Assembly: GCA_951406725.2 (NCBI GenBank)
Contig: OX597827.1
Span: forward strand, 62,806,001 to 62,870,000
Origin: Octopus vulgaris
Lineage: Eukaryota
Length of the DNA stretch: 64,000 bases
Direction: 5' to 3'
The notes beneath the pieces are model-generated. The model searched no databases. It saw nothing but the letters and a program-made list of their open reading frames with translations, and was not told the origin of the DNA. The position numbers were made by a program, and so were the translations under genes. This document shows positions 58,246-62,684 of this stretch, one piece after another; within the stretch, counting starts at the first letter, position 1; each line of letters opens with the position of its first letter.

Positions 58246-59907
58246 GAAAATGATTTTAATTCTTCCGTGTTAATCGATCTATCTGATTAATAAGAGGTAA
58301 CTTCTCCTTTTATCCCGTTACTCTTTCTTTCTTATTACAGATTTATCTACGACCCAATTTTTCCTCTGTATTTTCCTCACTGCGTACCTCTACTTCTGTC
58401 CTTAAGCATTATAAATGTAATATTTTTTTGAAAACAGCCTCGATACAGCTTGATAACCCGAAAGGTGAAACTATAGTAATTCAATATAAATATTTTCGTA
58501 TGATCAAAATATAAAACTTATACACACTACCAAGAAATATATTATGTCTTGAAATCTAAATTAAATAAAGTTCGGTAGTCAAAAACTATATCTTTGCGCA
58601 GTCTGATGATTCTAAAAATTCTTATGAAATTTACCATTAAGTCTGCCATATATTTCTCTTACAGATAATTACCAATGCATGTAAAAAAAAATAATTTTAT
58701 TACATCATATCAGAAGCTATGAGTTTGCAAACGATTGAGATATAGTTGTGAGAATAGATACTTCACATTCAAAGACCAGACGAGAAAACACCTAAAACCT
58801 AAACACACACACACACACACAAACAAAAATATGAGATTTGTGAAGATTTCTAGATAATGTCTTGCCTACATTTATATTAACTACTCATTGAAGAATTGAA
58901 ATTTTTACCATTAAGACTGTTCTGCAGAGACGTGAATAAGTGGAAATCCGAAGGAGCAATATCTGGTGTATATGGAGTGTGGAGTGACACATCCCAGCCG
59001 AGCTGCAGCAATTTTTGTCTGGTTCCCAAAGCATCAAGTGCCGAAAAGGAACTTTCTTATCTTCCATTTTAAAGAGTTACAGAATTAACACAGGTTATAG
59101 GAAGATAAATCTTCTTCCACGAAAAGATAGCTTAAACTGTGCTCTAAATGGAGGTGTAGTAAAATCCTATTTTATGGACTCAACAACCATGTTCTAAAAG
59201 AATTCGAAATGTAAGCTACTATAAATCGGCACGAACTTTCCGGACAACCCAATATATTCACACATATGATTACGAAACCGGCGTTATTCACTGCACAGCT
59301 GCTTAAAAAGACTGTATGACTGAATTATTTTAAATTTAGTTACGCAAAAGTGTGTACACTTTCGACATTCATTCAGAGGTTGTTATATATAAATATGCTG
59401 TTTTAACTTCATCTTCTATGTTTAATGTAATCATACATACAGAGAAATTAAATGGCAAATAACGTACTTTGTGAAAGCATACCCTTCTTTCAACAAGCCG
59501 TTTCTAGTGCGTATTTCTGCCTAATATGAAAAGTTATTTTTCAAAACACTTTAATCCTCCCTAATCCCTTCTTAGAATTAATATCTTCTTGATATGAAGC
59601 CGTTAAAACGCTCAAATATTCTATTCCAATTCTCAAGAAAGTGAGTTTTCTTTCCACACGGTTTCGTCATCAACAACAAATTTAAATCGTAACATTTAAA
59701 CATACAAAGCTCTTATTTTATACATTATTTACATTATTTACATTTGACGGATATTTGTCCTCATATTGTTTGTTGTAAACACAACGTTTCGGCTGATACA
59801 CCCTCCAGCCTTCTTCTGGTGTCTTGGGGAAATTTCGAACCTGGGTTCTTATTCGTAAGGTATTTTCGATGTTATTATTATCATTATTATTATTATTATT
59901 ATTATTA

Positions 59908-60200
59908 TTCAGTAGTTTTATTTTTATTTTTTTAGCGTGCTTTCACTTCACTATTTACCATGAAGGGGCTTTTCTTGCCATCGTTTTATCATGGTTCTTT
60001 GCTGTTCTATTTTTAGTTTGGATTTCATTTTTTTTGTTTTCCTTCCTTCTGAAGTAGATATTTTTGCAGTCCTATGGTGGTTATTTTATAGTAGTTTTCC
60101 AGCTGTATAAGGCCTCTACCACCTCTATACGTTGTATATATAGTCTTTGTTTAGTATTGATCTAACTCGTCTATAATATTCTTTCTTTATTTTCTCTTTT
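59908..60200 (-). mobile_element. Multiply deleted miniature of the adjacent Dong/R4 copy
   Basis: Four collinear blocks matching ~60315-60353, 61152-61235, 61378-61490 and 61662-61712. Confidence 0.85.
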
Positions 60201-60315
60201 TTTTATTTATTTTTCGGTGTTATTATTATTTATTATTATTATTATTATTATTATTATTATTATTATTATTATTATTATTATTATTATTATTATTATTATT
60301 ATTATTATTATTATT

Positions 60316-61712
60316 CAGTAGTTTTATTTTTATAGCGTGCTTTCACTTCACTACCGAGCGCAGCTCTGTGTGCCTTAGGTATGTGCTGTGATTTGTTATG
60401 ATGCTCTGATGGTTATTGTATGGAAAGTGTTCTGCGTAGGATGTGTGCAGTGCCTAGTAGTGCAATTTTCTGTATGTTATATGTGTTTGTAAGTCCTGGT
60501 GTTTTTGTTATGTATTTGTCTGAATATTTTTTTATCATGCCTAATGCACCTACTATGATAGGAATTGTTTCTGTTTTTAGATTCCACATTCAGTTTACCT
60601 CTATTTCCAGGTCTTTGTATTTTGAAAGTTTTTCCATTTCTTTTAGAGACACGTTGTCATCTGCCGGTATTGATACATCAATTAGAAAGCATTTTTTTCT
60701 TCATATCTCTGACAACTATATCTGGTCTGTTGGCCTTAATTTCTCTATCTGTGTGTATCGGCATATCCCAGAGTATGGTTGCTTTCTTGTTTTCTGTGAC
60801 CTTTTCTGGTGTGTGCCTATACCATCTTTTTTCTGTTGTTATTCCATAATGTTGGCTTAGCTTCCAGTGTATGTAGGTTCCAACTCTGTCATGTCTGTGA
60901 ATATATTCCTTCTTCTAGCCAGGACTGGGCAGCCAGAGATAATATGATTTATTGTTTCTTGTCCATCTCCACATATTCTGCAGTTACTTATTATATTTCT
61001 TTTCATTACGTGTTTTTGGTAATTTCTGGTGGGGAGGCTATGGTCTTGTGCTGCAATTAAAAATCCCTCTGTCTCTGCTTTGAGTCCTGAGCTTCTCAAC
61101 CATTGCTAGGATTTTTCTTTGTCTATTTCTTTTGCGTTTAGTTTAGTCCAGTATTTACCATGAAGGGGCTTTTCTTGCCATCGTTTTATCATGGTTCGTT
61201 GCTGTTCTGTTTTTAGTTTGGATTTCATTTGTTTTATAGCTTTTGTTGTTTCTTCTTCTTCTTCTTCTTCTTCTTCATATTTATTAGGTGGTATGATTTT
61301 TTGTTTGTATTTGTCAGCTTCCTTAAATACTGAGAACAGTTTTTTGTTTTGCTCGTGTTTTGCCGCTATTTGTATCAGTTTTCCTTCCTTCTGAAGTAGA
61401 TATTTTTGCAGTCCTATGGTGGTTATTTTATAGTAGTTTTTCAGCTGTATAAGGCCTCTACCAACTTCTATACGTTGTATATATAGTCTTTCTATGTCAG
61501 ATTTTGGGTGATGCATCATAGATCCTGTCATTATTTTTCTTGTTTTCCTATCTATTTTGGTCAGTTCATTTAGTGTCCAGTTAAGGATATTGTAGCTGTA
61601 ACTTATAACTGGGACAGCTAAAGTGTTAATACCTATTATCTTGTTTTTAGCATTGAGCTCTGTTTTTAGTATTGATCTAACTCGTCTATAATATTCTTTT
61701 TTTATTTTCTCT
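60316..61712 (-). mobile_element. 5'-truncated Dong/R4 (RLE) non-LTR retrotransposon inserted in (TAA)n
   Basis: HPKSDIERLY...GRGL, KPLHGKY, LKAETEGFLIAAQD, CCHC finger CRICG..ETINHIISGC, RHD, RPDIV..D..IDVSIP endonuclease, QKIALLGTAHILRRTL*; internal stops; (TAA)n on both sides, matching the known Dong target. Confidence 0.92.
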
Positions 61713-61876
61713 TATTATTATTATTATTATTATTATTATTATTATTATTATTATTATTATTATTATTATTATTATTATTATTATTATTATTATTATTAAT
61801 ATTATCATTATCATTATCATTATCATTATTATTATTATTATTATTATTATTATTGTATTTGTTCAGGTCATTGTTT

Positions 61877-61918
61877 GGAATCGAACTCGGAATCTTGGGG
61901 TTAGTAACCACTACGCCA
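61877..61918 (-). promoter_or_regulatory. Pol III type 2 internal promoter (left arm)
   Basis: A box TGGCGTAGTGG (61908-61918) and B box GTTCGATTCC (61877-61886); spacer ~12 nt shorter than in the right arm. Confidence 0.75.
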
Positions 61919-61934
61919 TATGCTGACGGGCATA

Positions 61935-61989
61935 TGGCGTAGTGATTAAGTGCGCCGGCTACTAACCCCAAAATTCCGAGTTAAATTCC
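61935..61989 (+). promoter_or_regulatory. Pol III type 2 internal promoter (right arm)
   Basis: A box TGGCGTAGTGA and B-box-like GTTAAATTCC, each slightly mutated. Confidence 0.65.
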
Positions 61990-62105
61990 AAGCAGTGACC
62001 TGAACAATAACAACAACAACAACAACAACAACAACAACAATAACAATAATAATAACACCGAAAAATACCTTAGGAATGAGAACCCAGGTTCGAAATTTCC
62101 CCCAA

Positions 62106-62151
62106 GGCACCTGAAGAAATCTGGAGGGTATATCAGCCGAAACGTTGTGTT
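62106..62151 (+). ncRNA. Type I hammerhead motif in the tail of the palindromic element (mirror copy ~59779-59823, minus)
   Basis: gcac-CTGAAGA-aatctg...cagcc-GAAA-CG-TT-gtgt; the mirror copy has an intact stem II ggctg/cagcc but core CAGAAGA. Confidence 0.7.
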
Positions 62152-62684
62152 AACAAACATGATGAGGACAAACATCCATCAAATGTAAATAATGTAAATA
62201 ATGTACATAATTCCTCATCTCTTAAATATAGAACTCTCTTATTTTATATAAGTATAAAGTAAAACGAATCGCGTTATTGTAAATTCGCCCTAGTTTGTAG
62301 TTTCATATTATTTACCGTTGACTTCAAATCATCAAACCTTAATATAACCACTCTGAAATCATTTATTTCCTACACTTCTCAATTACTTTTATCTCCTTTT
62401 TTATTTTTCGATATTCTTCTAATGTTTTTTTTATCTAACAAACATTTTTATATGCAATGCTTTTACAAACGTTTTTCTTCATAATTTTATAACTTAATGG
62501 ACAAATCTCTTGAGTATTATTATATTACAGTACACGTTAGATATATACAAATACATACACATGTGTGGATATATGGGTGTATAAGTATATATATATATAT
62601 ATATATATATATATGTAGGTCCCGGGTTGAGTCGGGGTTAACCACAGTAAATAAGGTACTCAATACATTGCAGAGTAAAGTAAT

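Follow-up and report, generated by a model that had tools for sequence, protein, structure and literature searches.

The hammerhead-bearing inverted repeat of an Octopus vulgaris locus and the tRNA-like head of a Penelope-like retrotransposon

The 64-kb stretch of Octopus vulgaris DNA analysed here (contig OX597827.1, 62,806,001-62,870,000; hereafter the window) contains at 59710-62248 an inverted structure spanning 2.54 kb, in which two tRNA-like heads point away from each other and the arm on either side carries a type I hammerhead motif. The locus raises the question of what kind of mobile element left this structure, and from which promoter and by which enzyme it was made. A sequence-only reading had taken it for an RNA polymerase III (Pol III)-driven short interspersed element (SINE), processed by its own ribozyme and mobilised by a Penelope-like element (PLE). 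On searching the 2.8-Gb genome, we consider it nearly certain that the window element consists of two head-to-head, 5′-truncated pseudo-long terminal repeats (pseudo-LTRs) of an abundant coding retrotransposon of Penelope/Poseidon type, the Poseidon placement being provisional, from a quick tree built without a Neptune/Nematis outgroup. As to its expression, we favour, with a probability of about 0.6, the reading in which the pseudo-LTR opens with a tRNA-like head acting as the promoter where the element RNA starts, probably under Pol III.

The family and its coding element

A 24-base stretch of the hammerhead gave 3,470 exact matches in the genome and a looser core pattern gave 4,996, with no match to the reversed control in either case. 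Because the exact 24-mer was present in 14 of 83 sampled arms, the family size can be put, as a rough figure, at 20,000 arms; candidates for the N-terminal part of the open reading frame (ORF) numbered 279. Head and tail were found together in 27 of 29 loci seeded with the head (L numbers denote loci), so that their association elsewhere in the genome was confirmed. The first link to an ORF came from L030, where a GIY-YIG-type frame terminates right before the head. When loci were seeded with the ORF, the head lay behind the ORF end in 27 of 29, and the expectation that the unit would be found at the end of a PLE ORF with reverse transcriptase (RT) and GIY-YIG domains was borne out. Among 30 loci seeded with the N-terminus, the tail continued directly into the ORF in nine, and in L103 the order was head, tract, tail and then an open frame of 210 residues counted from a start codon in the tail.

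The majority sequence of the copies encodes an 838-aa ORF with RT and C-terminal GIY-YIG, whose stop codon precedes the head by 29 nt, and the hammerhead “tail” corresponds to roughly the first 54 codons of this same ORF. Since the head follows 29 nt past the ORF stop (27/29) and the tail runs into the ORF (9/30), head, microsatellite and tail together constitute the pseudo-LTR of the autonomous element itself, and in the family layout a head and an (AAT/AAC)n tract lead to the start codon with its hammerhead, RT and GIY-YIG come next, and 29 nt further on a second head and (AAT/AAC)n tract precede hammerhead and tail. Loci L185 and L316 show the order tail-ORF-head-tail. The tail is Penelope-derived, as had been suggested; its derivation from the 3′ end of a long interspersed element (LINE) was ruled out, the tail being the PLE ORF start.

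The ORF was matched by Pfam RVT_1 (E 1.4e-10). A GIY-YIG motif is visible in the family translation, and the Pfam GIY-YIG model matched the homologue P0025 (E 1.2e-5) and none of the family's own copies. The protein search returned 251 homologues at E ≤ 1e-30, the closest being P0002, P0009, P0012 and P0015; P0009 is 57% identical to the family ORF and its N-terminus keeps the hammerhead-coded peptide, and an Anolis protein is 37% identical over residues 34-833. P0087 is presumably the PLE known as PAc. Parts of the family were also detected in sequencing runs under six organism codes, with contigs under two of them (B and F) spanning ORF end, head and tail; among these holders no RNA run was on record. 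Two linked allele sets, comprising one head site and two tail sites, define at least two subfamilies, and in both the reading frame and the hammerhead core are preserved.

The tRNA-like head and the start of the element RNA

The family head has good A and B boxes (24.8 bits, A-B spacing 44) and broken acceptor and T stems. On comparison with the genome's own tRNAs, Arg-TCG was the best of 10 (z 8.5), as a provisional isotype. A covariance model made from nine tRNAs of the genome matched the heads of three better-kept copies (14-23 bits, E 0.03 to 6e-5) and gave no match to the head copies of the window, and ARAGORN called no tRNA in the family head, with noise called everywhere at relaxed thresholds.

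The 5′ ends of the arms were then scored in an unbiased sample, namely the first 30 exact pattern matches on one chromosome, of which 28 loci were scored and the overlapping L146 and L147 left out. Fourteen of the 19 arms reaching position +4 stopped at −8 to +4 of the head, where 0.9 would be expected from the downstream truncation rate at nominal linker length; over three samples, two of them biased, the corresponding count was 58 of 71. At type 2 promoters Pol III starts at such a position relative to the head. The stops would therefore mark the template's 5′ end, where Pol III would start, and it is likely that the tRNA-like head is the start of the element RNA; the use of Pol III from this head is a narrower claim, to which we lean only slightly. 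The pile-up of 5′ ends at a tRNA-like head, together with the sense strand free of TTTT described below, looks new.

These ends could also be set in another way. The head may be a passively captured fragment of a SINE or tRNA, the 5′ end being fixed by a Pol II start, by RNase P-type cleavage or by stalling of the RT at a hairpin, and the lack of TTTT being due to chance. In line with this, the 5′ ends are spread over ~12 nt, at the site of a short palindrome. The hairpin which this palindrome can form is, however, only ~4 pairs long, yet 14 of 19 arms stop there, and boxes that are kept next to broken acceptor and T stems are more readily understood in a promoter than in a substrate of RNase P. 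We regard passive capture as unlikely, and further evidence on both sides of it came from the TTTT counts and the RNA reads.

In the family majority, the 2.64-kb sense strand contains no TTTT at all, and the same was observed with a second set of 20 further copies. Against synonymous shuffles this absence had a P of 0.024-0.029, a value which by itself leaves room for chance, and the absence of GGGG from the ORF, used as a control, was expected from the protein (P 0.29). TTTT occurred at a mean of 3.3 per kb in 57 related PLE stretches from metagenomes (22 of 79 loci with less than 1.2 kb aligned being left out) and at 0.5-0.6 per kb in decayed copies of the family itself. Other controls within the genome were less useful: all 20 copies fetched by protein search for a head-less PLE family belonged to this same family, a neighbouring family showed no ORF, and the LINE nested in the window element was too poor in T (one TTTT observed, 1.4 expected). 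Because the ORF is without a terminator, Pol III might, more tentatively, be thought to read through the whole of it.

A possible second tRNA-headed PLE was met in L224, a metagenome contig with a 2,791-nt tandem unit that encodes an intact 855-aa PLE in head-to-tail order. Its untranslated region (UTR) has A- and B-box-like motifs 56 nt apart (~2829-2895), and a short AAT tract lies between these and the hammerhead. For the box comparison, of 46 relatives that extend to the end of the ORF, 29 were left out as having no usable UTR plus hammerhead; among the 17 kept, L224 scored 22.3 bits and the next 14.8. Of the ten relatives with at least 2 kb aligned, only the box-bearing L224 is free of TTTT in its aligned part, which argues against passive capture of the head, and its whole 2.8 kb holds only two TTTT. 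Rfam returned nothing for L224, an uninformative result because a near-consensus control copy was missed as well. In L275, two tRNA-like SINE heads (61 and 41 bits; 3650-3975, minus strand) lie near a metagenome PLE, in the opposite orientation to it and not within its UTR.

Taken to its furthest, the promoter reading would describe an autonomous coding PLE that Pol III transcribes end to end (~3 kb), starting at a captured promoter of tRNA type within the pseudo-LTR, with an ORF purged of terminators and with the distant L224 built alike. We put this forward tentatively and hold it to be rather doubtful, as a number of observations weigh against it. The two TTTT of L224 stand early in its ORF, the synonymous-shuffle P for this contig is 0.24, and it was not matched by the tRNA model. 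L250 is free of TTTT in its aligned ORF part and yet has no boxes, as chance absence would have it; the deficit in the family is modest when taken alone, and four of the 57 relatives, L250 among them, likewise have none in the aligned part. Among the copies examined, no single one with head, ORF and head intact was found. The translation of an uncapped RNA is a difficulty for this reading, and the Penelope of Drosophila virilis uses a LINE-like, TATA-less internal promoter (PMC2377424).

The RNA reads gave no help either. Three RNA runs, with strandedness not on record and from cDNA libraries, which would be poor for uncapped RNA, were aligned to the head-tail-ORF stretch. Depth was 1,000-4,000 over the pseudo-LTR and 5-30 at the ORF start, equal on both strands, and 87-89% of the reads (71-76% in another analysis) ran on into unrelated flanks. 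No pile-up of read starts or ends and no transcript start was seen in the three runs, as would also be the case for a passively captured head. The RNA signal looks like read-through of dispersed copies.

The sequence-only reading was right that the unit moves with a PLE and not with a LINE, and went too far in making it an independent SINE, since the head lies in the coding element. In that model the short head-tail copies would themselves be transcribed by Pol III and serve as sources, forming a SINE-like family that the PLE enzyme copies in trans. The head with A and B boxes at the 5′ end of the unit is indeed a feature of SINE2 elements; on the other hand, this head is shared with an autonomous coding element, and the 3′ part is neither LINE-derived nor a simple repeat but the PLE ORF start with two fixed internal ends. 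The short copies far outnumber the long ones (~20,000 arms against the 279 N-terminal candidates), tailed short copies contain the boxes and both RT start sites, and one allele set is commoner in short arms (22/59) than in ORF-linked ones (2/28). The seed of the ORF-linked sample, however, belonged to the other allele set, and arms that continue into the ORF (L103, L119 and L120) have the “short” alleles too. Changes private to a copy are almost never common to a pair (9 in 5,006 sites, compared with 0.09% between loci), and a frameshifting fifth C was never found in both arms (0 of the 10 scorable pairs having it). Moreover, if RT starts on a full-length RNA where the 5′ pseudo-LTR meets the ORF, the same short product results. 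A SINE-only subfamily was sought and none was found, with no variant exclusive to short copies in 61 short versus 33 ORF-linked arms, both biased samples. We judge transposition of short copies as an independent SINE to be quite improbable.

Paired insertion and the window copy

In the unbiased sample, 20 of the 28 loci were head-to-head pairs and eight were single arms, so the inverted dimer with TSD seen in the window turned out to be the rule in the family. The tail of ~30 nt was present on exactly one arm in all 20 pairs; over all samples it was one-sided in 63 of 67, and in three of the remainder one arm continues into the ORF. Target-site duplications (TSDs) of inverted pairs measured 9-15 bp, and a shared flank of at least 9 nt was found for 31 of 67 pairs, compared with 35 of 2,178 mismatched pairs. 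The two arms of a pair had the same allele at the hammerhead N7 site in 36 of 41 pairs, against 0.52 between loci, and at another site in 46 of 59, against ~0.5 (self matches or duplicates L001, L031, L061, L090, L091 and L147 being left out); CpG changes were not common to both arms. The tailed arm was the longer in eight of the 20 pairs, the tail-less arm in another eight, and four were equal. L146/L147 (G000:C1:11300254-11300611), with two tailed arms placed tail to tail and similar flanks, resembles an inverted duplication of local origin more than it does a single insertion of a PLE.

We infer from these pairs two primings on RNA from a single source. The endonuclease would nick the two target strands ~13 nt apart, and each nick would prime its own cDNA on RNA from that source, one at the pseudo-LTR end and the other ~30 nt further; both cDNAs would run off at the RNA 5′ end and then be joined at the palindrome before the head. 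For PAc, nicking and extension of both target strands have been reported, with RT starting at two internal positions between which the tail lies and with hammerhead cleavage unnecessary (PMC11167929), and the same one-tailed inverted layout has been described for PLEs (PMC3846280, PMC8557442). The inversion could instead arise if a single cDNA folded back and primed itself at the palindrome, as palindromic PLE junctions have been interpreted (PMC3846280), and the source alleles common to both arms and the symmetry of some junctions would agree with it. Fold-back is excluded for eight of the 20 pairs, because their shorter arm has a tail that is absent from the longer arm and so cannot be its copy, and in L030, L086 and L302 the two arms hold different parts of the ORF. 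Self-priming as the general route thus seems very unlikely, and two primings are preferred.

The hammerhead of the family majority, whose integrity had been predicted from two damaged window copies and is supported by the 4,996 pattern matches, folds with helix I, a 6-bp helix II, a palindromic helix III and an intact core. It resembles the minimal PLE hammerheads (PMC4209133) in the CUGANGA and GAAA core, the extra base before G10.1, the G10.1-C11.1 pair, the 6-bp helix II, the absence of loop 3 and the palindromic 15.2-16.2, with no essential difference, cleavage being predicted here; the minimal PLE form cleaves weakly in vitro and as a multimer only (PMC4209133). The search with the Rfam hammerhead, proposed as a check, gave no match in the window or in near-consensus family copies. 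Processing by the ribozyme, as first proposed, was not upheld: copy ends fall into two clusters, at 130-156 and 175-191 of the tail, with the cut at 87, and copies thus end 55-100 nt beyond it, by which cleavage as the end-defining step was rejected. RNA read ends, expected after the cleavage triplet, were not found at the cut site, which in cDNA libraries is weak evidence. In a head-to-head dimer the two hammerheads lie on opposite strands and therefore cannot supply the same-strand dimer thought to be needed by the minimal ribozyme; by prediction, cutting would take place only in such a dimer, and the copy ends are not set by the hammerhead.

There is very little doubt that the window copy is a real insertion, though a decayed one, and that both its class and its footprint are known. 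Its 13-mer TSD has only two exact occurrences in the window, at 59710-59722 (plus strand), where the final two bases are possibly common with the element end, and at 62236-62248 (plus). The left arm (59723-59870, minus) corresponds to the 5′ end of the PLE ORF in decayed form and lacks the 30-nt extension, and its minimal type I hammerhead (59779-59823, minus) has one core change at 59817; a (TAA)n tract of the left pseudo-LTR follows (59872-59909, minus). The left head (61863-61923, minus) has box A at 61908-61918 and box B at 61877-61886 with a 13-nt deletion between them, and the right head (61928-62003, plus) has box A at 61935-61945 and box B at 61980-61989. Both heads were thus present as first described; the box sequences quoted for them are complete in the left one, and in the right one box A is changed once and box B twice. 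Between the heads, the junction at 61920-61931 consists of the short palindrome preceding the head, a microhomology join with two later changes.

On the right side, a (CAA/TAA)n tract (62004-62057, plus) leads into the right arm (62058-62205, plus) with leader, start codon (62076-62078), frameshifted ORF start and hammerhead, the reading frame being broken in this copy. The right minimal hammerhead (62106-62151, plus) is predicted to be cut after 62146, and stem II is changed at 62119-62120. Both cores and the end of the cleavage triplet thus lie where the sequence-only reading had put them; the different single lesion it saw in each holds for the left one, while the right one has two adjacent changes. 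The arms are unequal, as the 30-nt PLE “tail” extension (62206-62235, plus), consisting of more ORF codons, is on the right arm alone. The tails are alignable, and 139 of 146 and 169 of 176 aligned positions are identical to the family majority. In the window, ARAGORN found no tRNA, and Rfam matched neither hammerhead nor tRNA.

The order of head, microsatellite and tail is found as described in the right arm only, since the left head is separated from its tail by two LINE fragments (59910-61711) inside the left (TAA)n tract. Insertion of the whole as one unit is in keeping with the TSD, except that these fragments, 1.8 of the 2.54 kb, are nested and later, and without them the insertion measures ~0.7 kb. 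The long fragment (60316-61711, minus) is a 1.4-kb, 5′-truncated and decayed LINE 3′ end, whose translation shows zinc-knuckle and restriction-like endonuclease motifs (Pfam zf-RVT E 9.4e-6, sub-threshold), and another (TAA)n tract (61712-61854, minus) lies between it and the left head. The short fragment (59910-60196, minus) is an internally deleted duplicate with the same 5′ break point, and the spacer next to it (60197-60315, minus) contains 12 nt copied from the start of the PLE tail (60208-60219) and, at 60220-60315, a (TAA)n tract; this shared break point and the tail-start copy ahead (59910-60219 region) suggest a local duplication or a template jump and not a second insertion. The LINE must have arrived later, because the same LINE sits at 95-97% identity in the (TAA)n tract of L008, L009, L027 and L034. 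The pseudo-LTR tract is in general a frequent landing site, receiving this LINE as well as a more distant relative (65-72%), as seen in these four loci and in L129, L016, L023 and L052. By its motifs the LINE would be Dong/R4-like. Recent Penelope and Dong-R4 activity has been listed in an octopus (PMC13282606).

Relation to known elements and meaning for the family

Other repeats were also noted in the course of the work. At 62616-62811 of the window another fold-back element with a hammerhead, unrelated to the first and much younger, lies within (TA)n; it is a perfect palindrome centred at 62747/62748 with a ~66-nt tail on one arm and TTTT runs in the repeat. It has 635 candidates in the genome, many of them 100% identical, and no ORF in two longer copies, and from its sequence it looks like a non-autonomous PLE derivative. 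Tandem arrays at 7906-8424 and 27222-27654 (2.9 and 2.4 copies) have a 178-184-nt unit resembling a common SINE body, presumably of the Nin-domain type, and L196 contains seven tRNA-Cys-like genes within 3 kb (138-2854), two with variant anticodons.

The family shares with tRNA-derived SINEs, including Schistosoma SM-alpha, which is reportedly of tRNA origin, a tRNA-like head with A and B boxes, short high-copy insertions starting at the head and a type I hammerhead; it differs in that the octopus unit is without a LINE-type 3′ end, inserts as inverted pairs and is continuous with a coding element. SM-alpha has been described as SINE-like and hammerhead-bearing (PMC8490949). Endonuclease-bearing (EN+) Penelope/Poseidon PLEs (Anolis PAc, PMC11167929; Adineta Pen2a, PMC3846280; PMC8557442) have the same ORF with RT and C-terminal GIY-YIG, a pseudo-LTR that includes the ORF start, a hammerhead over the first codons, an inverted 5′-truncated copy, a tail of 30-40 nt at one end and TSDs of ~10 bp. 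Their pseudo-LTRs are described, in the available portions of these papers, with Pol II-type promoter motifs only, whereas that of the octopus opens with a head of tRNA origin, carrying A and B boxes, and with a microsatellite; the term tRNA had no match in PMC3846280 and PMC4209133. Non-LTR retrozymes (PMC7229834; bioRxiv 10.64898/2026.07.22.740005) are likewise type I hammerhead repeats from PLE pseudo-LTRs, but they form head-to-tail tandems that make circles, whereas in the octopus head-to-tail tandems of the short unit are rare (L020, L139) and inverted pairs dominate; the available part of the bioRxiv text makes no mention of tRNA.

The closest concept to a coding PLE driven by Pol III is that of the TRIMp3 elements Cassandra, Helenus and Ajax (PMC10886601), which have a Pol III promoter derived from a small RNA in the terminal repeat, possibly through SINE insertion, and all of which are non-coding. 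They are short LTR elements, whereas the octopus repeat belongs to a 2.5-kb coding PLE, and their author states that the autonomous partners must use Pol II (PMC10886601). No tRNA-headed or Pol III-driven PLE was found described in the literature covered, mostly that which is freely readable, and the family itself may already be in Repbase or Dfam.

If true, a Pol III-driven coding PLE would break the assumption that coding retrotransposons need Pol II, as stated for the TRIMp3 partners (PMC10886601); it would pose the question of how uncapped RNA is translated and would provide an example of a form midway between SINEs and autonomous elements. The family also calls for caution, as some of the “SINEs” in such genomes are solo PLE end repeats. 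Even without Pol III, the thousands of pairs are a natural read-out of the insertion mechanism of PLEs, and one tail per pair, either arm being the longer and a single source fit the two-strand priming observed in vitro for PAc.

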